A DNA stretch of 24,000 nt from Clostridia bacterium (lineage in GTDB: Bacteria; Bacillota; Clostridia; HGM11514), in the NCBI GenBank assembly GCA_045540615.1, contig JAZQHN010000039.1, forward strand, positions 7,996 through 31,995. Direction: 5' to 3'. Shown here in pieces: positions 1-20,217 of the stretch. The position numbers and the translations under genes were made by a program. Under the pieces are notes generated by a model. That model made no database searches. It was not told the origin of the DNA and was given only the letters and a program-made list of their open reading frames with translations. Within the stretch, counting starts at the first letter, position 1; each line of letters begins with the position of its first letter.

Positions 1-344
1 AAAACAGCAGCTTTCCCTGTTAACCCCCATTTTTTAGATAAATGGTATAAGCCAACGATTAAAAATCCATTGATCAATACATTAACTCCAAGCAACCAGG
101 GATAAATTACCGTAATTTCTTCTGAAAATGCCATAACCGGCAACAAAAACAAACTATAACCAGGTAAAAAATAAAGTCCGTCTCCCGTACCATTCAGTAA
201 TTTCTGCGCCCATCCAAGATACCCTGTTTCCTCCGGAAAAAGGGTAGGAATCCGTTCTCCAAACAGCAGAAGAATGCTGCAAAATAACACATATCCCGCA
301 TATAACCAAAGCTCTGTTTGGTACAGCTTTAATCGTTTGTTCAT
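1..344 (-). CDS. GT-C-like polytopic membrane protein, array paralog 4 (N-terminal 114 codons only; gene runs off the left edge)
   Basis: Not in the ORF track because it leaves the window. Hand translation of the minus strand from ATG 344..342 stays open to position 3: MNKRLKLYQTELWLYAGYVLFCSILLLFGERIPTLFPEETGYLGWAQKLLNGTGDGLYFLPGYSLFLLPVMAFSEEITVIYPWLLGVNVLINGFLIVGLYHLSKKWGLTGKAAV. It aligns with the N-termini of the three upstream paralogs (FPEETGYLGWA, YFLPGYS, IYP). GGAGGAG at 356..350 precedes the ATG. The ATG overlaps the upstream TGA (ATGA at 341-344). Confidence 0.85.
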   Translation of the reverse strand, partial: MNKRLKLYQTELWLYAGYVLFCSILLLFGERIPTLFPEETGYLGWAQKLLNGTGDGLYFLPGYSLFLLPVMAFSEEITVIYPWLLGVNVLINGFLIVGLYHLSKKWGLTGKAAV

Positions 345-2785
345 GGAAGCTCCTCCAATCTAATCTCTATGGCATCAATTGTCAGACCAAATTCATGATT
401 GTTCACACTTTTCCCCAAAATATCTTCAAATCGATGTACCGCAAACTGAACGGGCTTCAGATTACTGTCCAAAGATAAAAAGGACATCCATTTCGGCAAG
501 CCCGATTCTTCAAAGGGATTCACTGTATCGGTCCGGATAGTAATTGAGGTAATTTCCTCAAGTCCATCAAAAGGAAAATAATAAGCTCCGTTATCATATT
601 TTTCAGAAAAAACTGTCAGGCTATCATTAAATACTACAGACACATGATCACGCTGATCTCTTGATTCAATCAGCAACACGCCCTTTCCTCCGGGCATTTT
701 AATCTGTTCTATCCGTGCCTCAGCCCCTGTATCATTGCCATAAAATCCGACTAAATTTCCTGCATAACTGCTTCCTTCTACGGCATTGGCATATTTCAGA
801 TGAGAAAAAGCAATCCTCCGAAAGCTATGGTCATATTCCCAAAAAGATGTTTCTACAAATACACCTGCCTCTTTTTTTAATACCAAAGGAGTATCTCCTC
901 TGTCAGAAAACCAGGCAACAAATTCTGTCAGCGGTTGAATTTCCACATATTCACAAGCATCAGAAAAACGAACGGAAAAGGTCTGACTATGATCCCGATT
1001 TAAATTTTCGGAAAAATCAAATCTCTGGTCAGAAATCATATTTTTTTCTTTATCAAACTGCCGTACTCCCAGGCGTACCGCATGACGCAAATCCTTGACC
1101 GATGCCCAACATAGCCACGGACTTCCTACATTTTGAACCGTAATTTCCAAGGTGTTCTCTGTCTGATTCCAACGGTACTCTGCATCATAATCTGCTATTT
1201 CGTCGGGATAAGCAAGTGTCTCACCCTGACCGTTACGACTATAAAGATATACAGGGCGGTTATACTCTATTCCAATCAATATGCCCTCATCGCTTAACTG
1301 ACTGCTCATCATAAAGGGTTGTCCGTAATCCTCTGTACTCATTACCAAATCAGGACGTTGTACTCGGTAATTGTGATGTTCCCAGGAAAGACGGTCTGCC
1401 CGAACATAAATTTCCGCATGCTCCGGAAGCTGTTTTGCCAACGATAAAGCACGTCCTTTATAGTTGGATTCCGGTTCAAAATAACTTCCCTGCATCCAAA
1501 TGCTTTGTACTAAAAACGCTGCAAAAATACATACAATCGTTAAATTTTTTTCCTTTTTTCCAATCCACAAAAACAGCAAAGAACCTATTAAAAACAAGCT
1601 TGCTGCCCACCAATAACGAAAGGAATGTAATATCAATCGGCTAAAAAACAAACCAGTACAATGAATCATCCAACTGTCCAGGTTTGCCGTTTCCTTTCCA
1701 TATAAAACTCCTGTCAGCAATACAACTGCAAGAGATATCATCCAAAGCCAAAAGGGCACCTTTTGTTTGCTCCAGCGGGCATACACACCCAATAGCAAAA
1801 GAGGAACAATCACTTCCAGATAACGTCCGTATAAAATATGGTCAGGCCGTTCGTGATGATACATATACACCGCAGACAAACACCACAAAAAGAAGAGGCT
1901 TGCCAAGGTGAAAATCCAAAGAATATTTCCTTTCTCTCTTTTTCTCAAAGAAGAAATTCCGTAATATAAGCCTACTGCCGCCATCCCATAGGTAGAAAAG
2001 AGCAAATAACAAAAGTGAGAAAGCAGGGTAGTCAAGAACGAAAATATCCCCTTTGCGGTCATTAAATGGATCAACTGGTCCGTAATATGGGATGCCCCTA
2101 CATGAGAGGAACCGGAACATACCAAACATATTCCCGCACTAATCATACAGGCACAGACTATTCCGCACCCGATCAGCAATCTCTTTTTCTCCTTCAGCAA
2201 CACCGCTGCCGCCACCAATGCACCCAGACAGAACATCACACCTCTGGGATGAGTTAAGGATGCCCAAATTCCCAACACGCCAAGCAAAATCCACGTTCCT
2301 GCTGATGCTCTGTTTTTTTCTAAGGAAACCAAACAAAGAGCCATTGCCAACAATAAAACCGAAAGCAAAGTTTCACACCAACCAAGGCGGACATAAGAAG
2401 TAACCGCCGGATACAACGATGCAACGCTGCAAATAAATGCACGCTTTAGTACTGCTGCCGGTTTACACCATTCCTTGCTGAGGCGGTATAAAAAAACCGG
2501 AATCAACCCTCCCAAAAAAGCATTCAGCTTAATCATGAGGGGATAGACTAGGGTAATATCATCGGAAAAGAAAAAGAAAGGAGCAGCTAAAATACTGTAG
2601 CCGGGATAATAGTGCAATCCATCTCCCGCATTTCCTGCCAATATTCTTGCCCAACCAATATAACCCGCTTCATCAGGATAGATGATAGGGAATTTAGAAT
2701 CCTTTCCCAAATACAGAAAAAACAAAGCAAACAAAAGGAATAATATTCCTTCTGTCATGAAATCTGTCTTTTTCTCCTTTGTCAT
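341..2785 (-). CDS. GT-C-like polytopic membrane protein with large C-terminal extracytoplasmic-type region, array paralog 3 (814 aa)
   Basis: Long ORF. Many hydrophobic helices in aa 1-~435, then ~380 aa that are non-hydrophobic and beta-rich. Motifs: IYPDEAGYIGWAR (2645..2683), YYPGYS, SLYPA, THPRG, YHHERPDHILYGRY. SD GAGGTGA at 2799..2793. ATGA overlap with the upstream paralog (2782-2785). The GT-C assignment is inferred from architecture and motifs. Confidence 0.8.
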   Translation of the reverse strand: MTKEKKTDFMTEGILFLLFALFFLYLGKDSKFPIIYPDEAGYIGWARILAGNAGDGLHYYPGYSILAAPFFFFSDDITLVYPLMIKLNAFLGGLIPVFLYRLSKEWCKPAAVLKRAFICSVASLYPAVTSYVRLGWCETLLSVLLLAMALCLVSLEKNRASAGTWILLGVLGIWASLTHPRGVMFCLGALVAAAVLLKEKKRLLIGCGIVCACMISAGICLVCSGSSHVGASHITDQLIHLMTAKGIFSFLTTLLSHFCYLLFSTYGMAAVGLYYGISSLRKREKGNILWIFTLASLFFLWCLSAVYMYHHERPDHILYGRYLEVIVPLLLLGVYARWSKQKVPFWLWMISLAVVLLTGVLYGKETANLDSWMIHCTGLFFSRLILHSFRYWWAASLFLIGSLLFLWIGKKEKNLTIVCIFAAFLVQSIWMQGSYFEPESNYKGRALSLAKQLPEHAEIYVRADRLSWEHHNYRVQRPDLVMSTEDYGQPFMMSSQLSDEGILIGIEYNRPVYLYSRNGQGETLAYPDEIADYDAEYRWNQTENTLEITVQNVGSPWLCWASVKDLRHAVRLGVRQFDKEKNMISDQRFDFSENLNRDHSQTFSVRFSDACEYVEIQPLTEFVAWFSDRGDTPLVLKKEAGVFVETSFWEYDHSFRRIAFSHLKYANAVEGSSYAGNLVGFYGNDTGAEARIEQIKMPGGKGVLLIESRDQRDHVSVVFNDSLTVFSEKYDNGAYYFPFDGLEEITSITIRTDTVNPFEESGLPKWMSFLSLDSNLKPVQFAVHRFEDILGKSVNNHEFGLTIDAIEIRLEELP

Positions 2786-5199
2786 TTTTCTGTCACCTCT
2801 GATTCTATTACAATCTGTTTTATTTCCAAGCCCTCGTACCGACTTTCATACCAACGGTTTAACAGCTTTACATTAGAGGTTTTCCATTCCACGGGATACC
2901 GCAAAACCATTTCAGATACCCTGTCTGTTGATAAGGGGAATCTGTAACAGCCATCCTTCCATTCTGCTTTCCCTAAGGAAACCCCGTTTACCAAAACCTC
3001 CAAAGGCTGTCCTTTTTGAGCATATATTGCTAACATTCCCTGTTCAGGGACAGGACAGGAAAAATTGGTTATTCTGCTTTCTTTCCCTGCCATTCCATTG
3101 TAAAACCCACTTAAATTGGGCTTCCATGTTGTATTTTGAAGCTCGATTCCTTCTTTCATATGGCTTAATTCAATTCTTCCGAAAGAAAGAGTCGCGCTAT
3201 CCGCTTCTTTCTCAACGGGGACAAAAATGCTCTGTCCCTTTTTGTTTTCTATTTCATACATCTGACCTTCATCCAGCCAGGTGTTATATTCTTTTGCAGC
3301 TCTTACATACACATATTTTGCTTCCTTCGGAGGCTGTAACCTCCACTCGGCACTTTCTCCTCCATACAAATTCATAGGCAATTCCAATCGGTCGGAAAAA
3401 AGGAGCGTATCATCCTCCCCGTACCATACCGCAAGCAATGCCGTACATTCCCGAATATTTTGAGCAGATGCATAACAAAGCAGGGGGGCATCCTCAGCGG
3501 TAAGAGTCGCAGTTCCGTCAGAAGAAAGGGTCACCGTTGCCCTTGATTCTCCCCGATTCATAATATCATTTTCATATTTTTTCGCAGTTTCTTCTGTCCG
3601 TGCCCATAAATATACATTCACATTTTGCTCCATTGCAAGCAAGGGCAAATCATATCCTGTCTGACGGGTTAAAAGCAATCCTTGATTTTCTTCCTCTACC
3701 GTAATAGAAAGAGAAGGATTTTCCGTCATATATCGGTCATATTCCCAGGCATAACCCAAATTATTTTCTTCCTGTTCAATCACCTTAATTTGCTCTCCGT
3801 CCGCCAACACACCCATCAGCTCTGAAGGGGTATTTCTAGCATCAGACCAGGCTTTAAAATAAGTCAAATCTGTATAACAAATACTAATGAAAAACAACAC
3901 ACAAAGAGTTAGGATCTCTGCCACTCTGCTCTTTTTCCCAATCAGGAAAAGCAATACAGATAACAGACCAAACAATAATACCATTTGCCAATAATCAAAT
4001 ACTTGTAAAACCATTCGGTAAAGCCCGATGCCAAACACCTGCGCCACTTCCGAATCCACACTGCCCGAAGAAATTCTGGCAAGAAACTCTCCTTCATTTC
4101 CGTTTGCCAAAAGAGGAGCTTGCTTCCATCCTGTTACCAAAAGGGCAAACAAGCATGGAATAAGAACCCATTTTCCCATTCTTTTTTCTTTTAACATGGC
4201 TGTGATTCCTAACAAAAGCAGTCCTACAGTCATGCAATCATTGTACCGCCCGTAAAGAATATGCACCGGTTTTTCATGATGACTCATATAAAGACAAGAC
4301 AATAAAAATAAAAAACACCAACAGCTTAAAATGCACCAAGCAGCTTGCCATCCTTGCTCTTTTTTCACAATAATCCGAATTCCGTACCAAACACCGAAAG
4401 CACCTACAAAAAAGGTAGAACAAAGGAGATAAGCTCCTTGGGAAAGAATGGCATAAAGAAAATCTTTAATGCCACGGGAGGTAAGAAGTCCTACAAGCTG
4501 TTCCTGCAAATGAAGGGTGTTGGTATTGCTTCTCAGAAAAAACAAAAAGACGGTTATCAGTCCAACGACAAAAACTACTCCCACTCCCAGTATCGCTTTC
4601 TTTCTTTGCTCCCGTTTGACCAAAACAGGCAAACTGACCGCCAACGCAGGCAACACAATCAGAGCTCTGGTATGGGTAATCAGTAGAAAAGCCGTCAAAC
4701 ATCCCAGTCTGATCCACCCCCATGTATGTTTTGGATTCTGAGAAAGCAAACCGCATTGGAGTAGATATAGCACAAAAAGGGTCGCAAGAAGAATTTCACA
4801 TAATGCCATATTTGCATACATCAGATAAGCAGGATAAAGAGCACAAGCTACTGCACAAAGGAAACTGTTTCTATCAGAAAGTGCCAATACTTTGCCCAAG
4901 CGATATACCCCTACAGGTAAAAATCCTCCGATCAGTCCATTCACTGCCAATATCAAAGGATAGGCAACAGCCAGCTTGTTGGTCAAAGCAAAAACAGGAA
5001 GTAAAAATAGGCTGTACCCCGGCAGATACCGAACTCCATCAGACATTCCGTATATGATTTTTCTTGCCCAACCGATATATCCCCGTTCATCTCCATACAT
5101 AAGGGGCATTTTCGCCGCTTGCATTAAAATAAGATGCAACAGAACAAAGGAACAATATAAGAACAACTCTATCCGATATCGTTTCATAAATTGTTTCAT
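2782..5199 (-). CDS. GT-C-like polytopic membrane protein, array paralog 2 (805 aa)
   Basis: Long ORF. TM-rich aa 1-~445 and soluble-type aa ~446-805. Motifs: MYGDERGYIGWAR (5062..5100), RYLPGYS, ALYPA, THTRA, SHHEKPVHILYGRY. SD GGGGAGGG at 5210..5203. ATGA overlap with the upstream paralog (5196-5199). Confidence 0.8.
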   Translation of the reverse strand: MKQFMKRYRIELFLYCSFVLLHLILMQAAKMPLMYGDERGYIGWARKIIYGMSDGVRYLPGYSLFLLPVFALTNKLAVAYPLILAVNGLIGGFLPVGVYRLGKVLALSDRNSFLCAVACALYPAYLMYANMALCEILLATLFVLYLLQCGLLSQNPKHTWGWIRLGCLTAFLLITHTRALIVLPALAVSLPVLVKREQRKKAILGVGVVFVVGLITVFLFFLRSNTNTLHLQEQLVGLLTSRGIKDFLYAILSQGAYLLCSTFFVGAFGVWYGIRIIVKKEQGWQAAWCILSCWCFLFLLSCLYMSHHEKPVHILYGRYNDCMTVGLLLLGITAMLKEKRMGKWVLIPCLFALLVTGWKQAPLLANGNEGEFLARISSGSVDSEVAQVFGIGLYRMVLQVFDYWQMVLLFGLLSVLLFLIGKKSRVAEILTLCVLFFISICYTDLTYFKAWSDARNTPSELMGVLADGEQIKVIEQEENNLGYAWEYDRYMTENPSLSITVEEENQGLLLTRQTGYDLPLLAMEQNVNVYLWARTEETAKKYENDIMNRGESRATVTLSSDGTATLTAEDAPLLCYASAQNIRECTALLAVWYGEDDTLLFSDRLELPMNLYGGESAEWRLQPPKEAKYVYVRAAKEYNTWLDEGQMYEIENKKGQSIFVPVEKEADSATLSFGRIELSHMKEGIELQNTTWKPNLSGFYNGMAGKESRITNFSCPVPEQGMLAIYAQKGQPLEVLVNGVSLGKAEWKDGCYRFPLSTDRVSEMVLRYPVEWKTSNVKLLNRWYESRYEGLEIKQIVIESEVTEK

Positions 5200-7529
5200 A
5201 AGCCCTCCCCAACCATAATACGGTCAATTTGAATCCCACGGGGATTAAAATCCCAGCATTGATCAAATACCTTTTCCATCCCACGTACAAACAGAGAAAT
5301 CGGCTTACATAATGAATCAGACCGTAAAAATCCGAAAATTTTCGGAACTCCTGCTTCTTTGGCGGGCACTGTTACTTCACTTTCTATTTCAATACAATTG
5401 ATTTCGGTAATTCCTTCCAAATCATAACAATACCCTTCTTTTTTGTGTGAAACCAAATTTAAAGCGGTATCGTTCACTGTTACAAAAGGAGATTCTGTTT
5501 TACTGTCCGTTTCAATGATAAGACAGCTTCCGTCAACCTTCCAACCAAGATTATCATAAATTGTCATACCCGTACTATATCCGCGAAACATTCCCTTTGT
5601 CTGACGGGGATAGTCCTCCCCGCCCAAAACATCAAATCTTTTATTCTCCACTTTTGCTTGCTTACAATCTGTTAGTTTACCGTCCTGTACCGTTACCAAT
5701 ACACAAGCAGATGCTATCACTTCAGACAAATCTACCGAGGGAGAAATTTGGATTCGATAACTGCCATCTTTTAAAGAAAGAGGTATCTCCACAGTTGTTT
5801 CTTGTCCCTGATATAAATTATGCGGTAAATCGATTCGAAACTGTTCTTCATCGTTCTCAGAAGTCACCCAGACCACCAATCTGACACAATCTTCTAAATG
5901 CTCAGCACCATTGTAGCAAATCCAGGGTGCACCTGTATTCTTCATAAAAAGGGTCAGTCCTTTTTCGTTCCAATCTATAATGTTTGCATCTCCTGAAAGA
6001 GTTTGTTCTTCTCCCTCTTTCTGACAAAGGTATAAGGCATCATAGGTTTCGCTTCCGGCTATGATACCTTCTTTTTTCTGCGTTAACAACATATCTGCAT
6101 TCTTTGAAATTGTTAATTCAGGCTTAAGCGTAAGCAAATGATATACACCCCAAGGATACCCCATGGTATCCCCCTCCAAAGGTTTGGCATCCACTTCCCC
6201 ATTCACCAGATTCACAAGCTGAGACGGTTGATAGCGAGGAGCGGCTCCCTTGATAAAGTAATCATACTTGGTATAGCATGAAGTGACCAAAAACAAAACA
6301 CATAAAAACATAGTAGCAAAAACAGGGTTGTGCTGACGAATCAAATACATTATTCCGCCCCACAAACCAAACCAGACCGCCACACCTGCAAAAGTAAAGC
6401 GGCTGAACAAAATCTTATAAAAATATAAACCCCAAGTATGACATAAATTACTGTCAATTCCAACCAATTCTGCATGATAACGAAGACCTGTAAAGACGGC
6501 TAATATGGCAAATAAAACAGCAATCCACCAGTATTTCCGTTGTTTCAAAAATGAGGTCATCCCTAACAGTAAAATGCCTCCTAAAGCGAATTCATTGTAT
6601 CGTCCATAAAGGATATGATCCGGCTTTTCATGATGATTCATAAAAATCGCAGACAAAAGCATAGAAAACAGAAAACTAATCAAAATAAACCAAACGGCAG
6701 GATGATTTTTCTTTTTGAGAAGAACAATTCCCTGCCACACACCAAGTGCCCCTACCCCAAAGGTGGACAGCATGAGATAATAGCTTTGAGAAAACAGGGT
6801 AGAAACACTGTTCCACAATCCATTCACCGTCAGCAAGCCCATAAGCTGTTCTCGAAGATGTGCACCATTGATTGATTCTGTTCCAAATAAATACAAAACT
6901 CCCGCTATGGCTGTTAAAATCAAAATACCGCAACAGGAAAACACAGCTTTTTTTCGCCATGGCTTATTCCATGCAAAGCTGCAAAATGCCGCTAATACAC
7001 CAAGAATAACCGCGCCGCACCGACCGTGACTTACCATCATCCAAACACAACAAAGCAAAGAGAGAAGTCCCGCCCATTTATGTTTTCCCCATTGGCATAC
7101 TGACCATAACAGAAAAGTATATAAAAAAGTTAAAAATACCTCTGATAAAGCAAGATTGCCGTATAACAGCCATGCAGGATACAACCCTATCACCATAGTG
7201 CTCAGCAACCTTTTTTTCCCTTCTAAAAAAGTGCTTGAAATACCGTAAAAAAGTACAGGAATTGACGCACCCAGTAAACAATTGAAGAAAATTATGACAG
7301 GATAAGCCTTCAATAGATCATTAGTAAACCAAAAAATAGGAGAAAGAAGAAAACCGTATCCGGGCAGATACCGCCAAGTTTGAGCAGACCTGCCTGCAAG
7401 CTCTCTTGCCCATCCGATATAACCTGCTTCATCGGGATAAATTAAAGGAGAAACAGCCCCCCGGGTCATCAAAACCCAGATGGCTAAAAAAGTAACATAT
7501 ATCAAAATGTGTACTTTATATCTTCTCAT
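5196..7529 (-). CDS. GT-C-like polytopic membrane protein, array paralog 1 (777 aa)
   Basis: Long ORF. TM-rich aa 1-~420 and soluble-type aa ~421-777 (5199..6269). Motifs: IYPDEAGYIGWAR (7404..7442), RYLPGYG, GLYPA, SHGRC, NHHEKPDHILYGRY (6597..6635). SD AAGGA at 7541..7537 lies inside the last codons of the M16 gene. Only 3 nt separate the M16 stop (7533) from this start. Confidence 0.8.
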   Translation of the reverse strand: MRRYKVHILIYVTFLAIWVLMTRGAVSPLIYPDEAGYIGWARELAGRSAQTWRYLPGYGFLLSPIFWFTNDLLKAYPVIIFFNCLLGASIPVLFYGISSTFLEGKKRLLSTMVIGLYPAWLLYGNLALSEVFLTFLYTFLLWSVCQWGKHKWAGLLSLLCCVWMMVSHGRCGAVILGVLAAFCSFAWNKPWRKKAVFSCCGILILTAIAGVLYLFGTESINGAHLREQLMGLLTVNGLWNSVSTLFSQSYYLMLSTFGVGALGVWQGIVLLKKKNHPAVWFILISFLFSMLLSAIFMNHHEKPDHILYGRYNEFALGGILLLGMTSFLKQRKYWWIAVLFAILAVFTGLRYHAELVGIDSNLCHTWGLYFYKILFSRFTFAGVAVWFGLWGGIMYLIRQHNPVFATMFLCVLFLVTSCYTKYDYFIKGAAPRYQPSQLVNLVNGEVDAKPLEGDTMGYPWGVYHLLTLKPELTISKNADMLLTQKKEGIIAGSETYDALYLCQKEGEEQTLSGDANIIDWNEKGLTLFMKNTGAPWICYNGAEHLEDCVRLVVWVTSENDEEQFRIDLPHNLYQGQETTVEIPLSLKDGSYRIQISPSVDLSEVIASACVLVTVQDGKLTDCKQAKVENKRFDVLGGEDYPRQTKGMFRGYSTGMTIYDNLGWKVDGSCLIIETDSKTESPFVTVNDTALNLVSHKKEGYCYDLEGITEINCIEIESEVTVPAKEAGVPKIFGFLRSDSLCKPISLFVRGMEKVFDQCWDFNPRGIQIDRIMVGEGL

Positions 7530-7532
7530 ACC

Positions 7533-8783
7533 CTAATCCTTTTTCATTTTTTTAATCAAATCAGGAATTGCTCCTGCTGCAGCAATACAAAAACGTTCCG
7601 GAGTGAACACCCGTTCAATCACTCGTTTGGCATCCTCTAAGGTGACAGCATCAATCAGCTGCAACACCTGTTCCGGTGTTTTTACCGATTCTTCTAACAA
7701 TAGACCCTTACCCAAATGACTCATTCTTGAGGACGTAGATTCCAGACCTAATAAATATCCACCTGCCAATTGATCCTTACAAGCAGAAAGCTCTTCTTCA
7801 GAAATTCCATTTTCACACAATTCCTTGATTTCCCTGAAAATCAATTCCATGGTTTCTTCTGTATTTTCAGGGCTGATTCCCGCACTGATTGCTAATATTC
7901 CGGATTTGTTGTAACAAAGTGGGTACGACCCTATTGAATAAGCAAGGCCTCTTTGCTCGCGGATATTTTGGAATAGACGAGAGCTCATTCCGCCCCCGAA
8001 CAAAGTATTTACTGTTAACAAGGGATATAAATCCTTATCTTTTCTTGAAACACCTTCAAAACCAAATACAAACTGTGTTTGCTCCGCATCCTTTTCTTTA
8101 TAGCTCACTCCCGGATGAAATACCAAAGGAGATTCCGGAAATTGAGGAGTCCAAGACATCACCTTTGCCATTCTTTTTTCCAAAAGCTCAATGACCTGAG
8201 AAAGCTCAAAGCTTCCTGCAATGGCAAACACCATATTTTCAGGATGATAAAATCGATCCATATAGGAAATAAGATGATTTCGTTCAAATGCTTTGATTCC
8301 CTTTTGAGTCCCCAAAATCGTTCTACCGGCGGGACAATCGCCCCATGCTTGTTGAGACAGCAAATCTCCTACCAATTCCTCAGGGGAATCCTCATAAAGA
8401 CTGATTTCCTCTGCTATTACTCGTTTTTCCAGCTCCATATCTTCCGGAGAAAAAAGGGAATGAAACAACATATCGCAAAGGACGTCAATGGCTGTTTCCA
8501 ACTGTCTGTCCAGAGTTTTTACATAATAACAGGTATATTCATCTGACGTGAAAGCATTAAGCACGCCACCTGTTCTGTCTATCGCCTGAACAATTTGGCA
8601 CGCGCTTCGGTTTTCGGTTCCTTTGAACAACATGTGTTCCAAAAAATGAGAAATTCCGTTTTCCTGTTTTTTCTCCGTCAGACCGCCTGCCTGAATAAAA
8701 AATCCTGCGGTCACAGACTTTACATGGGAAATTTTTTCCGCTCCAATTCGCAAGCCGTTGGACAAAGTATAAAATTGAACCAT
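7533..8783 (-). CDS. M16 family (insulinase/pitrilysin-like) zinc peptidase
   Basis: HFLEHMLFKG carries the inverted HxxEH zinc motif typical of M16. Length and sequence are M16B-like. Its position after pnp matches the Bacillus-type rpsO-pnpA-...-mlpA neighbourhood. I moved the start to ATG 8783 (MVQFYTLSNGL...), preceded by GGAGGTGGAA. The 54-codon extension in the ORF track would cross the pnp-distal hairpin and overlap pnp. Confidence 0.9.
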   Translation of the reverse strand: MVQFYTLSNGLRIGAEKISHVKSVTAGFFIQAGGLTEKKQENGISHFLEHMLFKGTENRSACQIVQAIDRTGGVLNAFTSDEYTCYYVKTLDRQLETAIDVLCDMLFHSLFSPEDMELEKRVIAEEISLYEDSPEELVGDLLSQQAWGDCPAGRTILGTQKGIKAFERNHLISYMDRFYHPENMVFAIAGSFELSQVIELLEKRMAKVMSWTPQFPESPLVFHPGVSYKEKDAEQTQFVFGFEGVSRKDKDLYPLLTVNTLFGGGMSSRLFQNIREQRGLAYSIGSYPLCYNKSGILAISAGISPENTEETMELIFREIKELCENGISEEELSACKDQLAGGYLLGLESTSSRMSHLGKGLLLEESVKTPEQVLQLIDAVTLEDAKRVIERVFTPERFCIAAAGAIPDLIKKMKKD

Positions 8784-8794
8784 TTCCACCTCCG

Positions 8795-8849
8795 AAAAAA
8801 TAAAGGGACCGACCGGCAGGGAGCATGTTGTCCCCTTTGCCGCGGCCGG
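8795..8849 (-). terminator. GC-rich hairpin plus T-run between pnp and the M16 gene (putative partial terminator or 3' stabiliser)
   Basis: Minus strand reads ...CCGGCCGCGGCAAAGGGGACAACATGCTCCCTGCCGGTCGGTCCCTTTATTTTTTCGGAGG. Possible pairings are AAAGGGG/TCCCTTT and CCGGC/GCCGG, followed by TTTATTTTTT directly before the M16 SD. The folding is ambiguous by eye. Confidence 0.45.
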
Positions 8850-8874
8850 CCCATTCCATGTTATTATTCTGCTC

Positions 8875-10971
8875 TTATTCTTGTTCTTGTTCCGGCAGAG
8901 CGTCTTTTCTGGACAGATTGATTCTGCCCTGTTTGTCAAATTCAATTACTTTAACAACAATTTCGTCCCCTTCAGAAACAACATCCTCTACCTTTTCCAC
9001 ACGTTTCCGATCCAGCTTGGAAATGTGAACCAAGCCTTCTTTACCGGGCAGGAATTCTACGAAGCAACCAAATGCCATCAGCTTGGTTACTTTACCAGTA
9101 TAAATATCCCCAACTTCGGGTTCGCGGGTTACATCTGTTACCATCTTCACAGCCAAATCACCGGAGGCTTGGTCAGGAGATGCCACATATACAGTACCGT
9201 CATCTTCAACATCAATGGTAGCGCCGGTTTCTGCAATAATTTTCTGAATCATCTTTCCGCCCGGGCCAATGAGATCACGAATCTTATCCACATCAATCTT
9301 AAGCGTGGTAATCTTAGGCGCATAGGGAGATAATGTTTCTCTGGGTTCTCCAATAACAGGAAGCATTACTTCATCCAAAATATAGTATCTTGCATCTCTG
9401 GTCTTTTCCAGAGCTTCCTTAATAATTTCCTTGGTCAAACCGTGAATTTTAATATCCATCTGAATTGCGGTGATACCCTTTTTGGTACCTGCAACCTTAA
9501 AGTCCATATCACCATAGAAATCTTCTACACCTTGAATATCAATCATGGTAAGATAATCGTCTTTATCTGTTACCAAACCAACAGAAATACCTGCAACAGG
9601 AGCTTTAATGGGAACACCCGCAGCCATCAAAGCCAAAGTGCTTCCGCAAACACTACCCTGAGAGGTAGAACCATTAGAGCTTAATACTTCAGATACCAAA
9701 CGAATTGCATAGGGGAATTCGCTTACCGGAGGAATCACAGGCTCCAATGCACGTTCTGCCAATGCACCATGACCGATTTCACGACGTCCGGGACCTCTGG
9801 AAGGTTTGGTTTCCCCAACAGAGTAGGAGGGGAAATTATAGTGGTGCATATACCGTTTGGTTTCTTCTTCATCCAGTCCATCTAACCGCTGTGCATCAGC
9901 AACAGGACCTAAGGTTGCCAAAGTCAAAACCTGTGTCTGACCTCTGGTGAACATACCGGAACCGTGAGTTCTGGGAACCAAATCCACCTGAGCGTTCAGA
10001 GGACGGATTTCGTCAATCTTACGTCCGTCTACACGCTTGTGGTCAACCAGTAACCACCGTCTTACAATGGCTTTCTGGATTTTTTCAAAGATTTCACGAA
10101 CTTCTCCTTCGGTTACCTCCGGATACTTGTCCGCCAGATGCTCCATAGTATCAGCAATTACAATTGCCAATGCATTGTCACGAACAGTTTTATCATCCGT
10201 GTCCAGAGCAACTTCGATTCTTGCCTGTGCAAATGCTTTTACTGTTTCATACAGCTCTTCATCCACAGTCTGTGCTTCATATTCAAACTTGGGCTTTCCG
10301 ACTGCTTCTACTACAGTTTCGATGAAAGCACAAATCTTTTTAATTTCTTCATGGGCAAACAGGATTGCATTGTACATATCCTCTTCGCTTACTTCCTGGG
10401 CACCTGCTTCAATCATAACTACACGGTCTTTGGTACCGGCAACCGTTAATTGCAGAATGCTCTTTTCTCTCTGTTCTACGGTAGGATTGATGATAAATTC
10501 ACCGTCTACCATTCCTACGAACACACCGCCAACAGGGCCGTCAAAAGGAATGTCAGAAATAGAAATTGCCAGAGAAGTACCAATCATAGCGGTGATTTCA
10601 GGAGAGTTATCCTGCTCAACAGAAAGCACCAAAGAGTTTACCGTAACATCGTTTCTCATATGCTTGGGGAACAAGGGACGGATGGGACGGTCAATTACAC
10701 GGGAAGTAAGAATTGCCTTTTCGGAAGGCTTTCCTTCTCTTTTCTGGAAGCTGCCGGGGATTTTACCAACCGCATACAGCTTTTCTTCATAGTCAACACT
10801 CAGAGGGAAAAAGTCAATTCCTTCTCTGGGAGATTTGGATGCGGTTGCGGTGGATAATACAACAGTATCACCGTAACGCACCAGGGCAGAGCCGTTTGCA
10901 AGCTGTGCCATTTCGCCTGTTTCCACTACCAACGGTCTGCCCGCCAGAGTGGTTGAAAATACTTGTTTCAT
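8875..10971 (-). CDS. pnp: Polyribonucleotide nucleotidyltransferase (PNPase)
   Basis: 698 aa. The organisation is unmistakably PNPase: two RNase PH-like halves, then KH ([10 protein letters not shown]) and S1 ([33 protein letters not shown]) domains. AAGGAGG SD lies upstream of ATG 10971. Located downstream of rpsO. Confidence 0.98.
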
Positions 10972-11182
10972 GCTAAAAATAGCCTCCTTAAAAATAAATT
11001 TTCAGGAACCTTATTGGTCTTTAGCATTTAAATCACAGTTTTTTACCAACCTCGTTTTGGGTAATTAAGAGGTATATCCACGATCAAATCTATTTGAAAA
11101 TATAGTATTCAAATAAGACAAAAAACTGTCATCTAACTGCTAAATGTCCAACAAAATTCCAAAAGTAAAGCGTTCGGAAAAT

Positions 11183-11230
11183 AGAACAAAAAGGCGGCCG
11201 GGGAAGAAATCTTCCCCTCTGCACCGCCTT
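11183..11230 (-). terminator. rpsO-distal intrinsic terminator/attenuator hairpin
   Basis: Minus strand reads AAGGCGG-TGCAGA-GGGGAAG-ATTT-CTTCCCC-GG-CCGCCTT followed by TTTGTTCTATTTT. It starts 9 nt after the rpsO stop. The two-tier stem is 11191..11230. Confidence 0.75.
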
Positions 11231-11238
11231 CTCAATGA

Positions 11239-11502
11239 CTACTTTCTCAGGTTCAGTCTGGCAATCAGAGAACGATATCTTTCGATATCCTTGCTCATCA
11301 GATAATCCAAAAGCCCGCGTCTCTGACCAACCATCTTCAGAAGACCGCGTCTGGAATGATGATCCTTCTTGTGAGTCTTCAGATGTTCGTTCAGGTGGTT
11401 AATCCGCTGAGTCAACAGAGCAACCTGAACTTCGGGAGAACCGGTGTCGCCTTCGTGAGTTTTGTACTCATCGATAATTGCTTGCTTTACATCCTTCATC
11501 AT
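11239..11502 (-). CDS. rpsO: 30S ribosomal protein S15
   Basis: 87 aa with typical S15 sequence ([51 protein letters not shown]). GGAGG lies 9 nt upstream of ATG 11502. Confidence 0.98.
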
Positions 11503-11610
11503 GATACATTTCCTCCATTCATAATTTTACCCCTACAGCACAGAATACGGCTTGGAGTATTCCTTGTAATTTCAAGGATTCACCCGCAATCCGAGCAAAG
11601 GGACATAGTT

Positions 11611-11639
11611 ATTTTACCACAAAAAATCCTTTTTGTAAA
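11611..11639 (-). promoter_or_regulatory. Sigma-A type promoter of rpsO
   Basis: Minus strand reads TTTACA (11639..11634), a 17-nt spacer, then TGG-TAAAAT (extended -10; TAAAAT at 11616..11611). This predicts a ~100-nt leader. Confidence 0.65.
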
Positions 11640-11686
11640 GAGTTAAACGAAAATTTTTTAAAAAATCATACTAAATTTAGAAAAAA

Positions 11687-11965
11687 TCAGGGATTACAGT
11701 TCATGCAAGGCTGATAATATGCCTCCTCCGCTTCCTCTTTGGAAGAAAAATATACCCGATTTTTTTCCATGGGGAGAGAATAACAAGAACTGAGATGAAA
11801 TTTGCGCGTATTTTTATTGCCAATTAAAAAAGGAGAGGGAGTGGCAGTTTGTACAACGGGAACAACAGAAGACACCGCAGATTCCCTTGGCAAGGACACC
11901 CGTTCGCCACAGCTTGTCTGCCATAACAACAATAACACCACCACAGTAGGGATTAATTTCTTCAT
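11687..11965 (-). CDS. Small secreted or lipoprotein-like protein with C-terminal Ada-type Zn-binding-like motif
   Basis: 92 aa. N-terminal signal-like segment MKKLIPTVVVLLLLWQTSCGE. The C-terminus KFHLSSCYSLPMEKNRVYFSSKEEAEEAYYQPCMNCNP follows the Ada N-terminal Zn-domain pattern (F.....C...C/P...N.V.F.S..EA...G/Y..PC..C.P). AAAGGAG SD is present. Confidence 0.7.
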   Translation of the reverse strand: MKKLIPTVVVLLLLWQTSCGERVSLPRESAVSSVVPVVQTATPSPFLIGNKNTRKFHLSSCYSLPMEKNRVYFSSKEEAEEAYYQPCMNCNP

Positions 11966-12008
11966 TTTATTTTCTCCTTTTACTCAATTTATGGGATATT
12001 TTAATACC

Positions 12009-12037
12009 ATTATACCATATCAAATGAATAAAATAAA
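12009..12037 (-). promoter_or_regulatory. Candidate promoter for the 92-aa secreted protein gene
   Basis: Minus strand reads TTTATT (weak -35, 12037..12032), a 17-nt spacer, then TGG-TATAAT (extended -10; TATAAT at 12014..12009). It lies in a very AT-rich divergent intergenic region. Confidence 0.45.
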
Positions 12038-12157
12038 GGAAATTTATTTATTTAGTTGAATAATTTTTATAAATTTACACCTTCTGTCAAGTTTTAATAA
12101 AATAATAAATAGATTATAATATAAATATAAATAAAAATGATAAATGGGGAAATAAGC

Positions 12158-12493
12158 ATGAATAACGAATTGGATTTTAAAAAAATCGGAAATCGGATAC
12201 AATTTTACCGATTGGAGCATAAATTAACACAAGCTGAGCTGGCAGAATTAATTGGAACCAATCAAAAACATTTATCAAGAATAGAAGCAGGATATCATCG
12301 TTCTAATTTTGATACCATTATTGCAATTACCAAGGCTTTGCATATTTCTGTTGATGCTTTGATTGCCGATTATGATGACAGCACAGATGAGAGTACACTG
12401 AAAATGATTTTGGATGACATCCGGGGGATGAGTCCCAAACAGCTTGAAATGTTAAGGGATAACATTAAAACAATTAAAAAATTTGAATCTTAA
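12158..12493 (+). CDS. XRE-family helix-turn-helix transcriptional regulator
   Basis: The sequence LTQAELAELIGTNQKHLSRIEAG is a classic Cro/C1-type HTH. I prefer ATG 12158 (MNNELDF...), which has GGGGA 8 nt upstream, over the track start at 12137. The start is uncertain by 7 codons. Confidence 0.85.
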   Translation: MNNELDFKKIGNRIQFYRLEHKLTQAELAELIGTNQKHLSRIEAGYHRSNFDTIIAITKALHISVDALIADYDDSTDESTLKMILDDIRGMSPKQLEMLRDNIKTIKKFES

Positions 12494-12495
12494 TG

Positions 12496-12540
12496 AAACG
12501 AGTCTGCAGCAAAATAATTTTGCTGCAGACTCGTTTTTTG
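12496..12540. terminator. Near-perfect palindromic hairpin shared by convergent genes (strong on plus, weaker on minus)
   Basis: AAACGAGTCTGCAGCAAAAT-A-ATTTTGCTGCAGACTCGTTTTTT. The stem is ~20 bp, with a T6 run on the plus strand directly after the XRE stop. On the minus strand only TTT follows the stem. It sits 40 nt past the stop of the 12576 gene. Confidence 0.85.
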
Positions 12541-12575
12541 CCTTGTGTGGTGTGCGATTTTGTTACACCCTCTCT

Positions 12576-13265
12576 TTATGATTGAAATAAAGCTTGATAT
12601 GCCATTTCGGCAGCACTTAACTCCATATTGCATCGGATGATATAACAGTCCGAACATTCCAGTAAGTTTCCGATTAAATCCATAGTTTTGGACAGCTTTT
12701 CCGGACTTTTCGGCAAGTAAACCTGACCGAGCAGTCTGGGTAATACTTCTTTTTTTGCCAGAGGTACACATTGGTTTTCCTCTGCCCGTTCGATAAAACA
12801 AATTTTTTTCAAAGGCACCGAGGTATTGGTCTGAAGTCCTTCTTTCCCTGCCCATGGAGTGCCATAGGCAATCGGTTCTCCGTTTTTCATTCTGATCAAA
12901 GGCTTATCCCCGTTTACCACCGTTACCTTCTCGCCAAACAGCCGTTGCCACAATCTCAGGTGAGTGGTTTTTCCCGTTCCGCTTTTTGCAAGGAAGGCAA
13001 CACCTGTACCATTGATTTCCAATACCGCACCATGCATTAAAAATCCATCATAGTCTAAGAGCCGTTCCGAAATTTTCCGATAAACTGCAAGGGTTTCCAG
13101 ATAAGGAAGTGATCCCTCTCCTTCTGCTCGAATTTCTTCTTCGGTTACAGAAACAGTTATATCAGGCCGGGAAAAGGAAGTGAGATATGCCCGACACATC
13201 TGCTCAATCAAAGAAAATCGGTTTTCGATTTGAATATTCAATTCTGCCAGACAAACCTTAATCAT
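12576..13265 (-). CDS. HPr kinase/phosphorylase C-terminal-domain-like P-loop protein (function unknown)
   Basis: HGAVLEINGTGVAFLAKSGTGKTTHLRLW resembles the HprK-type 'G.GVL..G.SG.GKS' nucleotide-binding segment. I moved the start to ATG 13265 (MIKVCLAEL...), which follows GGAAGAGGAAGAG. The track start is a TTG further upstream. There is an 8-nt overlap with the upstream gene's stop (13258). Confidence 0.6.
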   Translation of the reverse strand: MIKVCLAELNIQIENRFSLIEQMCRAYLTSFSRPDITVSVTEEEIRAEGEGSLPYLETLAVYRKISERLLDYDGFLMHGAVLEINGTGVAFLAKSGTGKTTHLRLWQRLFGEKVTVVNGDKPLIRMKNGEPIAYGTPWAGKEGLQTNTSVPLKKICFIERAEENQCVPLAKKEVLPRLLGQVYLPKSPEKLSKTMDLIGNLLECSDCYIIRCNMELSAAEMAYQALFQS

Positions 13266-13764
13266 GCTGCTCTTCCTCTTCCATAAAAATCCAATCCATG
13301 CCAATAGGAGCTATGATAATCACCAATAATAACAATCCGTGAAAAATCAATGCAGAAACCAAATTGGAAATTCCCAAAGGGCTGTACCGCAAAAATTTTG
13401 TAATAGCAAAGCACCAGGCATACGCTGTATTACCTGCCAAAACGTAAACCAGTAAGGAAACTATCACAAACAAAAAGTATGCAATGAAATTAGAATAATA
13501 ATACATTTTTTTATCTTGCAAATCATAAAAACATTGCTTCAGCTGATGAAGATTCAGCAATAAATATGCCAATGTACCCAAGGTCAAAAACACCATCAGC
13601 ATTTTCTTCGAGCCGGCAATTCCTGAAAAATTAAATAAAATTCCAAATGCAGACAAAAACACCGACCAAAAGAGCATCTCAAGAAAGCGTCTGACCGTTA
13701 AACCGGCAACACCCGCTTGGAACATTTTTTCTTCGTCAAATTCTTGTTGTAAGTCAAAATTCAT
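13258..13764 (-). CDS. Four-helix integral membrane protein, unknown function
   Basis: About four hydrophobic segments (WSVFLSAFGILF, MLMVFLTLGTLAYLLL, FIAYFLFVIVSLLVYVL, LVSALIFHGLLLLVIIIAPI) and an acidic C-tail, EEEEQHD. ATG 13764 is preferred over the TTG at 13776. The start is uncertain. Confidence 0.65.
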   Translation of the reverse strand: MNFDLQQEFDEEKMFQAGVAGLTVRRFLEMLFWSVFLSAFGILFNFSGIAGSKKMLMVFLTLGTLAYLLLNLHQLKQCFYDLQDKKMYYYSNFIAYFLFVIVSLLVYVLAGNTAYAWCFAITKFLRYSPLGISNLVSALIFHGLLLLVIIIAPIGMDWIFMEEEEQHD

Positions 13765-13780
13765 CAATGTCAACAATCCT

Positions 13781-14227
13781 TTATTCTGTCAATTTTTCGT
13801 CAGTAATCACCACAGTGTTGGTTTCTTCCACCCAATCCACCTTCGCACTCAATGCCTCTGCTACCGCACGGACAGGCACCATAGTACGATCATTCGTTAC
13901 AAAAGGAACTGCATCTAACTTGATCTGACTATCTTCTCCGTTTTTACTAATGCTCATATTGTCAGAACCAATTTGCATGGTAATCAAAACCTCATCTCTC
14001 ACAGCCAAAACCAACTGATCTTCTTCAATCCAGGTTACCGTTGCACCCAAAGCTTCAAATACAGCTCTCATGGGAAGCATGGTTCTGTCATTCACCAACT
14101 GGGCAGGAACATCGCTTTCCAACACCCCACCGTTCACTGTAACGGTAATAGACTCCTCAGCTGCTCCTGTCATTACACAAAGCATAAGTAAAACAAAAAT
14201 CAACAAAATCAAACCTATTTTTTTCAT
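13781..14227 (-). CDS. Secreted copper-amine-oxidase N-terminal ('stalk') domain protein
   Basis: Signal peptide MKKIGLILLIFVLLMLCVMTGAAEE. The internal duplication VNDRTMLPMRAVFEALGATVTWIEEDQ / TNDRTMVPVRAVAEALSAKVDWVEETN is the hallmark of the Cu_amine_oxidN1-type stalk domain common in Clostridia. Confidence 0.8.
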   Translation of the reverse strand: MKKIGLILLIFVLLMLCVMTGAAEESITVTVNGGVLESDVPAQLVNDRTMLPMRAVFEALGATVTWIEEDQLVLAVRDEVLITMQIGSDNMSISKNGEDSQIKLDAVPFVTNDRTMVPVRAVAEALSAKVDWVEETNTVVITDEKLTE

Positions 14228-19602: not shown

Positions 19603-20123
19603 ATTGCTTCCTCCTTTTCTTTCACACAAGTAATCACACTGTAATGACCATCACACAGAAAACGAATTTCTCCGAACCCTGATTTTGTTAAAGAATGTTT
19701 GATCAAATCGGTATACAGATTGGTCTGAGGCTGTGCAAGAAAGATCAGCTTGCCCCCCTCTTTCACCAAACGGTATGCATCACCTAACAATTGCTCCAAA
19801 TCCTCTGTCAATAAGGTTTCAGGACAAAAAACTCCAATATCAAATACTCTGTCCTGAATCTGAGACAAGACACCTTCAAAGGAAATCATATGTTTCCCTG
19901 TTACTGCCAATTTTTTCTGTTCTTTGGTTTCTGCTTGGGCAACCGCCAACAACCGGGATGGCTTTTCCTCCAGTAATGCTTTCAGCATGGAAATAGGTGC
20001 CTCGTAGCAAATGATTTTCTTTCCCGGCTCCTCTGCAAATAATTTTGCCAACTGCACAGTTTTTTTATCCTTTGAAAGCTTTCCGGAAACAAATTCCGTC
20101 AGCACTTTTTGAAAATAGTTCAT
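19599..20123 (-). CDS. Class I methyltransferase-fold protein with degenerate SAM-binding motif I
   Basis: 174 aa from ATG 20123 (MNYFQKVL...), preceded by GGAAAGGAAG. FDIGVFCPETLL....LLGDAYRLVKEGGKLIF matches the post-motif II/III region of Rossmann-fold methyltransferases. The expected motif-I position reads KKIICYEAP, with no G.G.G. The promoter mapped at 20188-20217 lies inside the longer track ORF, which supports the shorter start. Confidence 0.6.
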   Translation of the reverse strand: MNYFQKVLTEFVSGKLSKDKKTVQLAKLFAEEPGKKIICYEAPISMLKALLEEKPSRLLAVAQAETKEQKKLAVTGKHMISFEGVLSQIQDRVFDIGVFCPETLLTEDLEQLLGDAYRLVKEGGKLIFLAQPQTNLYTDLIKHSLTKSGFGEIRFLCDGHYSVITCVKEKEEAI

Positions 20124-20187
20124 TATTACTTCTTCCTTTCCCATCATTTTACGAACTAACATCCCGAAAAGACATATTGTTGCATTC

Positions 20188-20217
20188 ATTATATCATATA
20201 CTCCGTCTCCTTTTCAA
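20188..20217 (-). promoter_or_regulatory. Sigma-A type promoter of the MTase-fold / dual-GT-C operon
   Basis: Minus strand reads TTGAAA (20217..20212), an 18-nt spacer, then TGA-TATAAT (extended -10; TATAAT at 20193..20188). Confidence 0.7.

Follow-up and report, generated by a model that had tools for sequence, protein, structure and literature searches.

We analysed a 24,000-nucleotide (nt) stretch of DNA from a Clostridia bacterium (GenBank assembly GCA_045540615.1, contig JAZQHN010000039.1, positions 7,996 to 31,995), hereafter the window, whose left end is occupied by a tandem array of homologous minus-strand genes encoding large membrane proteins with a predicted GT-C-type glycosyltransferase (GT) fold. 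Three of the genes are complete and begin with ATG: paralog A (5196..7529; 777 amino acids (aa); identical in sequence to the protein P0001), paralog B (2782..5199; 805 aa) and paralog C (341..2785; 814 aa). Paralog D is cut by the left window edge, so that an open frame from an ATG at 344 (1..344, minus strand) encodes its N-terminal 114 aa. In the model of paralog A, a membrane domain of 13 transmembrane helices (residues ~1-430) is followed by an extracytoplasmic beta-sandwich domain (~434-777), and paralogs B and C share this layout. Consecutive genes are joined by a 4-nt ATGA stop/start overlap at the A/B (5196..5199), B/C (2782..2785) and C/D (341..344) junctions, and at 3 of 3 a purine-rich, Shine-Dalgarno-like run lies inside the end of the preceding gene, 3-7 nt 5′ of the ATG (GGGGAGGG at 5203-5210, GAGGTGA at 2793-2799 and GGAGGAG at 350-356, respectively). 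A sequence-only reading of the window had described four consecutive homologous minus-strand genes, each junction carrying ATGA and a ribosome-binding motif; the open reading frames lie exactly where it placed them, and all 3 junctions read as described.

The array proteins can be aligned end to end. Pairwise BLASTP gave 33.5% identity between A and B (617 aa aligned, E 1e-90), 28% between A and C (791 aa, E 6e-85) and 29% between B and C (755 aa, E 9e-98), and the D fragment aligned with B at 44% identity (113 aa, E 4e-29). At the DNA level, self-similarity of the array was limited to four copies of motif-coding stretches at ~2.4 kb spacing, with 62-77% identity, which encode the two strongest motifs of the family. 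Because DNA similarity survives only in these stretches, the duplications are old, and a recent duplication or gene conversion of the array is ruled out.

To assign a fold, an AlphaFold2 model of paralog A was built on a 23-sequence family alignment; it reached a predicted local distance difference test score (pLDDT) of 88.4 and a predicted TM-score (pTM) of 0.83. Foldseek comparison of this model with the PDB returned 15 matches at E ≤ 1e-3, with no transporter among them. The best match was ArnT (5f15, E 7e-6, TM-score 0.49 on the target), and the other high-probability matches (Foldseek probability ~1.0) were EmbA/EmbB/EmbC, STT3, PglB, AglB, ALG9/ALG12, AftB and DPY19, all of which are GT-C enzymes. 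The alignments with the Emb proteins extended over ~840 columns and included their C-terminal part; transporters appeared at rank 22 and beyond, with Foldseek probabilities of at most 0.3. The division into a membrane domain and a non-membrane C-terminal region was visible in the model, in which helices extend to about residue 430 and are followed by 344-370 aa of beta-rich structure. Read against the positive-inside rule, the model helices gave 13 transmembrane segments with the N-terminus inside and the C-terminal domain outside, and the lysine plus arginine content was 28-36% in the proposed cytoplasmic loops versus 7-9% in the outer loops of A, B and C alike. On three grounds, namely its structure, its topology and where its motif lies, the membrane domain is predicted to adopt the GT-C fold, and the earlier proposals of a GT-C-like membrane domain and an extracytoplasmic C-terminal domain both withstood the fold search and the topology analysis.

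The C-terminal region (~345 aa), when modelled alone, reached a pLDDT of 92.1 and consisted of beta-sandwiches with a few short helices. Its Foldseek matches were weak (best E 6e-4, TM-score ≤ 0.25) and comprised accessory modules of glycoside hydrolases (GH146, GH2, the chitinase ChiA74 and a dextranase), the O-antigen-binding domain of Wzt, and RbmA. A GT-C domain coupled to a carbohydrate-binding module (CBM) is well known from Emb, AftD and the GT136 enzyme ORF12 (PMC11127046, PMC8035078), and by analogy with these proteins a carbohydrate-binding role for the C-terminal domain is plausible.

Curated families did not capture these proteins. A Pfam scan of A, B and C yielded no match at E ≤ 1 to curated GT-C families and nothing meaningful otherwise, and an NCBIfam scan of the window array proteins was likewise uninformative; the weak matches in these scans, to PnuC and DUF4131, were at chance level. 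Membership of individual families could be examined more closely. For GT39, the models PMT, PMT_2, PMT_4TMC and MIR were all unmatched in A, B and C, whereas the same Pfam search matched all three PMT models in a 945-aa protein encoded elsewhere in the window (16792-19629, minus strand). For GT53, which includes Emb and Aft, there was no Pfam or NCBIfam match, nor any PDB sequence match to Emb chains, even with profiles. The WWD[YWF]G motif of GT66 occurred in no paralog and STT3 was unmatched in Pfam, and Pfam YfhO gave no match at E ≤ 1. Two marginal signals were discarded: the best PDB sequence match, the WaaL-like 7tpg (E 0.078), was not trusted, and hhalign against the 945-aa protein was not used, the narrow family profile scoring 76% to its N-terminal domain and the broad profile below 5% to either half.

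An exhaustive profile search nevertheless retrieved 3512 cluster representatives at E ≤ 1e-3, most of which matched the membrane domain only. Among 61 sampled distant relatives, Pfam PMT_2 gave a weak match in 7 (best 9e-7) and GT87 in 2, and none reached an NCBIfam GT-C model; a near-identical cluster member of one distant relative carries the NCBI name 'glycosyltransferase family 39 protein'. Matches to curated GT-C profile hidden Markov models (HMMs) thus occurred in some distant relatives and in none of the window array proteins. On sequence comparison, the membrane domain appears to represent a GT-C branch that is widespread and uncurated and whose link to the PMT_2 clan is only transitive. 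In the literature searched, neither the family nor its arrangement has been described.

Close relatives were sparse. Among 5.8 billion clustered proteins we found ~45 full-length relatives, and the only name they carried was 'hypothetical protein'. The word-indexed homology hit lists are far from complete for this family: a search seeded with A missed the B and C of the window, and a search with the 114-aa D fragment returned nothing, although D-type orthologs of 52-60% identity exist among the fetched proteins. A scan of one genome per species identified 14 loci, all in metagenome-assembled genomes (MAGs) of uncultured gut Clostridia; one relative is labelled Ruminococcaceae/Oscillospiraceae. 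Scanning the loci with a family HMM, combined with reciprocal BLAST and a neighbour-joining tree, resolved five orthogroups, A to E, with ~50-75% identity within a group across species versus 28-34% between groups. The five orthogroups thus predate the divergence of these species, in agreement with the earlier view that the paralogs are old.

The order of the orthogroups was conserved in several genomes, and their number varied. Locus L016 has the arrangement rpsO-pnp-M16 peptidase followed by A (808 aa), B (805 aa), C (816 aa), D (806 aa) and E (793 aa) and then by a 579-aa soluble orphan; it is colinear with the window, its A, B, C and D being 54%, 57.5%, 54% and 57% identical to the window proteins. 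Genome SUG2628 (L004, L007 and L012 combined) encodes A-B-C-E, a Hadza MAG (L005 and L013) encodes A-C-D-E, L003 encodes A-C and L015 has two copies. L008, L009 and L011 have one copy each in a different context, with yabQ-divIC upstream. Orthologs of B were found at ~57% identity in L007 and L016, and orthologs of C at 47-64% in L003, L006, L007, L012, L013 and L016. Furthermore, the 795-aa protein P0176 is of E type and differs from each of the four window proteins; it comes from an NCBI contig with the source and length (46,443 bp) of that encoding P0001, and hence apparently from the contig of the window. Because of this apparently shared contig and the colinear A-B-C-D-E array of L016, the window genome very probably has a fifth copy and hence the complete set A-E; the suspicion that the array continues beyond the left window edge was well founded.

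Conserved residues were concentrated on one side of the membrane. Outside orthogroup D, the YPDEAGY motif that follows the first transmembrane helix is invariant; its D33-E34 pair, within YPDEAGYIGWAR, lies ~10 residues past the helix in the loop 23-71, which faces outward by the positive-inside count. In GT-C enzymes of the PMT and ArnT types, an acidic pair at this place, where the first outer loop opens, is the characteristic site of catalysis or metal binding. Further conserved outer-loop residues are H168/R170, H224/Q228 and H299-H300...H305...Y308-G-R-Y311, and under the topology of 13 transmembrane helices with the N-terminus inside all family-invariant residues fall in outer, extracytoplasmic loops. 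B and C keep every one of them. Across the 61 distant relatives, D33, Y37, Y251 and R310 are invariant, and E34, H168 and Y308-G309-Y311 nearly so.

These observations bear on the possibility that the membrane domain is not enzymatic at all, the proteins being transporters, scaffolds or decaying duplicates. The lack of a curated family match, the chance-level similarity to PnuC and DUF4131 and the low-probability transporters deep in the Foldseek list would be compatible with such a role, but every high-probability structural match is a GT-C enzyme and the invariant polar and acidic residues cluster in the outer loops. Decay is excluded because all array open reading frames are intact and the orthogroups are conserved across species at 50-75%. 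Moreover, since each orthogroup is conserved between species and keeps the motif set, all paralogs look functional. We consider a non-enzymatic membrane domain very improbable.

Orthogroup D departs from the common motif. Its members (the window D fragment, L016_4, L013_2, P0029 and P0031) carry the changes Y31F, D33E, Y54F and H305Q at otherwise invariant positions, except that P0029 retains H305, whereas the other orthogroups keep the full motif set. In the window D fragment, FPEETGY replaces YPDEAGY (Y31F, D33E, Y54F), and the 114-aa fragment ends before residue 305; the same substitutions recur in its orthologs L016_4 (806 aa, 57% identity) and L013_2 (800 aa, 52%). The recurrence of these changes across species indicates that D is a long-maintained functional variant rather than a decaying copy. 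Because orthogroup D changes the putative catalytic Asp and three other residues, the five paralogs need not be equivalent enzymes, and the D type provides a natural experiment on the catalytic acidic motif.

We surveyed the array junctions in the related genomes. At A/B, a 4-nt stop/start overlap, judged by coordinates, occurs in the window, L007 and L016, which are all three genomes readable there. At B/C, the overlap occurs in the window and L007 and is replaced by an 11-nt gap in L016; at C/D, it occurs in the window and L013 and is replaced by a 23-nt gap in L016. Gaps in the other arrays are 10-64 nt. The sequence-only reading had held that coupling is preserved at each junction, and this had to be given up, as ATGA is conserved only at A/B. 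Nor is the overlap specific to the array: within the window, an ATGA overlap at 19599-19602 (minus strand), with GGAGGAAG upstream, joins a 196-aa protein lacking a Pfam match (19599-20189) to the unrelated 945-aa PMT-family protein (probable ATG at 19602), and L015 has four overlaps of 4 nt between genes outside its array. ATGA as an array-specific feature is thereby ruled out; tight spacing is conserved, the overlap as such is not, and the overlap is a genomic habit.

The array directly follows a housekeeping operon. Paralog A starts 3 nt past the stop codon of an M16-family peptidase gene (7533-8945, minus strand; identified by Pfam), which is preceded by pnp (8875-10971, minus) and rpsO (11239-11502, minus), both recognised by inspection and through their syntenic counterparts in L015 and L016, which Pfam annotates. 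The same order, rpsO-pnp-M16 followed by an array of 2 to 5 copies, recurs in the relatives and was read in L003, L005, L015 and L016. A consensus scan of positions 1-12500 placed the best promoter-like site upstream of rpsO (11611-11639), with signal counts near the shuffled expectation. Within the array, neither promoters nor terminators were convincing, nor was any terminator between rpsO-pnp-M16 and the array; an Rfam scan gave no match. The array is probably the tail of an rpsO-pnp-M16 transcription unit. As to the M16 gene itself, its longest open reading frame opens with a TTG and shares 71 nt with the end of pnp. The domain that Pfam recognises as M16 is not reached before residue 73, and translation more likely begins at an internal ATG (MVQFYTL..., ~8783).

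Co-directional, closely spaced paralogs could also encode a hetero-oligomeric GT-C machine comparable to EmbA-EmbB or Pmt1-Pmt2, in which the tight junctions would serve co-translational, stoichiometric assembly and D would be a specialised or non-catalytic subunit. Obligate dimers of GT-C paralogs are on record (EmbA-EmbB, 7bvc; PMT dimers, PMC7759382, PMC12705809), the junctions of five-copy arrays are always tight (-4 to 24 nt), the order A-B-C-D-E is colinear between genomes, and the change of four otherwise invariant residues in orthogroup D is coordinated and conserved. However, the copy number of 1 in L008, L009 and L011, 2 in L003 and L015 and 4-5 elsewhere reveals no fixed subunit set, which argues against an obligatory four-subunit machine, and the ATGA overlap is not conserved at B/C and C/D and is common between unrelated genes. 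Because copy number varies (1, 2, 4 or 5), modular enzymes fit better than a fixed complex. We regard the hetero-oligomeric machine as unlikely, though a serious contender; it is compatible with the interpretation that we favour below, as pairs of the modular enzymes could still dimerise.

We propose, with somewhat more confidence than doubt, that the four window genes open an array of five (A-E), and that the array encodes diverged, uncurated GT-C-fold glycosyltransferases forming a sub-functionalised set directed at a wall glycopolymer. To the observations on genes, homology, fold, topology, motif conservation, orthogroups and synteny, this proposal adds that the proteins are active glycosyltransferases, that their donor is lipid-linked and their acceptor a glycan, and that they divide the labour, all of which we infer. 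In each protein, a polyprenyl-phosphate-linked sugar would sit in the groove formed by the transmembrane bundle and the first outer loop, with Asp33-Glu34 of YPDEAGY as the putative catalytic or metal-binding residues and H168/R170, H224/Q228 and H299-H300...H305-YGRY311 possibly lining the active site. Transfer of the sugar would take place on the outer side of the membrane, the acceptor being a glycopolymer of the cell envelope, or possibly a glycoprotein, that the C-terminal beta-sandwich domain holds. Co-expressed from the rpsO-pnp-M16 operon, the five paralogs would differ in linkage, position or donor. The set would work like Emb/Aft in a Firmicute, or as an expanded form of Gram-positive multi-component transmembrane glycosylation (PMC8035078). 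The evidence for a wall polymer as the acceptor, namely the CBM-like domain and the neighbourhood of L015 described below, is circumstantial.

Several observations weigh against this proposal. The array is placed among housekeeping genes and not in a glycan locus, and its surroundings in the window contain neither a polyprenyl-phosphate sugar synthase (GT2) nor a GtrA/Wzx flippase. PDB sequence searches with narrow and broad family profiles found no match, in line with the Pfam and NCBIfam blanks, and the Foldseek TM-scores of the paralog A model are modest (0.3-0.5). The structural matches on which a carbohydrate-binding role of the C-terminal domain rests are weak. In orthogroup D, moreover, the putative catalytic Asp is replaced by Glu and three more conserved residues are changed.

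The same motif and structural matches raise the alternative that the array encodes protein glycosyltransferases, either PMT-like O-glycosylation enzymes or relatives of oligosaccharyltransferase, acting on secreted, S-layer or cell-wall proteins recognised by the C-terminal domain. The DE-type motif after the first transmembrane helix resembles the PMT signature, as YFDEIYHARTA of the PMT-family protein in the window occupies the position equivalent to YPDEAGYIGWA of the array. Foldseek also matched STT3, PglB and AglB, all of which have C-terminal substrate-binding domains; some distant relatives give weak PMT_2 matches, and the window encodes a Cu_amine_oxidN1 wall-associated protein. Nevertheless, the window array proteins match none of Pfam PMT, PMT_2, STT3 or MIR and lack WWDYG, the best structural matches (ArnT, Emb) modify lipid or glycan, and the C-terminal domain resembles glycan-binding accessory modules and not the peripheral domain of PglB/AglB. 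Protein glycosylation by the array therefore seems improbable.

The closest precedent for the proposed wall-directed GT-C array is embCAB, the mycobacterial arabinosyltransferase operon, in which three tandem GT-C paralogs with C-terminal carbohydrate-binding domains form EmbA-EmbB and EmbC2 (7bvc, 7bvh; PMC7305291); loci with several GT-C enzymes have also been noted before (PMC11127046). In view of both, the earlier statement that GT-C enzymes usually occur singly was overstated. Like the GT53 genes embCAB, the array consists of tandem, co-directional, anciently diverged GT-C paralogs; as in the Emb proteins, a polytopic GT-C membrane domain is followed by an extracytoplasmic CBM-type beta-sandwich, with full-length Foldseek alignments, and the building of a wall polysaccharide outside the membrane is plausible for the array as well. 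Unlike the Emb proteins, however, the array proteins have no Pfam Emb/arabinosyltransferase match, so that the similarity is structural and architectural only. They have 13 transmembrane helices and ~800 aa versus 15 and ~1,100 aa in Emb, and they lack the large second periplasmic domain that Emb has between transmembrane helices. Furthermore, the array comprises five copies in a housekeeping rpsO-pnp operon of a Firmicute host with no known arabinan, whereas Emb comprises three.

Other GT-C enzymes share part of this architecture. ArnT (GT83) resembles the array proteins as their best structural match, in its 13 transmembrane helices with the N-terminus in and the C-terminus out, and in the acidic motif opening the first outer loop, but it has only a small periplasmic C-terminal domain, unlike the beta-sandwich region of the array. 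The PMT_2/GT39 clan is linked by the weak PMT_2 matches of distant array relatives, although the window proteins reach no PMT, PMT_2 or ArnT model, and the extra domain of PMTs is a MIR domain within a loop, not a beta-sandwich region at the C-terminus. With the Gram-positive systems CsbB/GtcA/YfhO, GacI-L, GtlA/B and the GT136 enzyme ORF12, the array shares a proposed mechanism, in which a C55-phosphate-linked sugar made in the cytoplasm is flipped and then transferred to a wall polymer by a GT-C enzyme; larger GT-C enzymes carry acceptor-binding CBM domains (PMC8035078, PMC11127046). In contrast to them, the array has no YfhO or other curated match and no adjacent GT2 synthase or flippase in the window, and such multi-component systems normally have one GT-C enzyme per locus, compared with the five array paralogs.

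Collectively, the genes represent a genuine and uncharacterised family of GT-C proteins, expanded in tandem much as in Emb. Precedents exist for the fold, for the architecture of GT-C plus a CBM-like domain and for tandem paralogy, and nothing established is overturned; new are the uncurated family, the five ordered and conserved orthogroups in a housekeeping operon of uncultured gut Clostridia, and the D paralog with its variant motif. A stronger version of the proposal, in which A-E form a co-assembled extracytoplasmic glycan assembly line as the counterpart of Emb/Aft, with a mechanistically distinct D, a new CAZy family and an undescribed major wall polymer of gut Oscillospiraceae-like Clostridia, strikes us as a long shot; within it, D would either use another donor chemistry or handle the acceptor without being catalytic. 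The final sugars of the bacterial surface, and thus its recognition by phages, antibodies and host lectins, are set in extracytoplasmic steps performed by GT-C enzymes. Sequence searches of Pfam, NCBIfam and the PDB miss this family, although thousands of proteins are related to its membrane domain; its expanded five-gene form is limited to Clostridia that are abundant in the human gut but uncultured. Should the array proteins prove active, they would point to an undescribed wall glycopolymer pathway and a candidate new CAZy family.

The surroundings of the arrays provided further observations. A conserved soluble protein of 527-591 aa is always encoded after the last paralog of multi-copy arrays, sometimes overlapping it or 2 nt away (L003:14814-16397, L013:5647-7422, L006:3501-5123, L012:3039-4778, L016:22157- and L017:3244-4986). 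It had no Pfam match even at E 10, no PDB sequence match and, by eye, no transmembrane segment or signal peptide. It probably lies just left of the window and may be part of the system. After it come a class I Glu/Gln tRNA synthetase gene and then trmB, glyA and mgsA. In the human-gut contig L015 (16344-21861), on the strand opposite to the adjoining two-copy array, are encoded an SLH protein, a CsaB-like pyruvyltransferase (PS_pyruv_trans), a Wzx-type flippase (Polysacc_synt) and a GT2 enzyme. Such a combination of SLH protein, CsaB-like pyruvyltransferase, Wzx-type flippase and GT2 is the classic complement of genes behind a pyruvylated secondary cell wall polymer, to which SLH proteins are anchored. 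The single copies of L008, L009 and L011 (~9000-12900) directly follow yabQ (Spore_YabQ) and a DivIC-like septum-formation gene and precede a cytidylate-kinase-like gene, a sporulation and division neighbourhood and not the pnp operon.

Elsewhere in the window, the 945-aa PMT-family protein has two polytopic domains. Its C-terminal half (~557-942) matches PMT, PMT_2 and PMT_4TMC (GT39-like), while its N-terminal ~400 aa have no Pfam match and contain a D-x-x-x-F...YPPGY region, to which the weak narrow-profile hhalign score corresponds (residues 38-188); the protein may be a fusion of two GT-C modules split by a ~150-aa soluble domain. A divergent unit at 12137-13776 comprises a 118-aa regulator that by eye resembles XRE-type helix-turn-helix proteins (12137-12493, plus strand) and, on the minus strand, two proteins of 242 aa (with a GTGKTT P-loop) and 172 aa, neither of which has a Pfam match. 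This unit is adjoined by the gene for the Cu_amine_oxidN1-domain protein (13781-14227).

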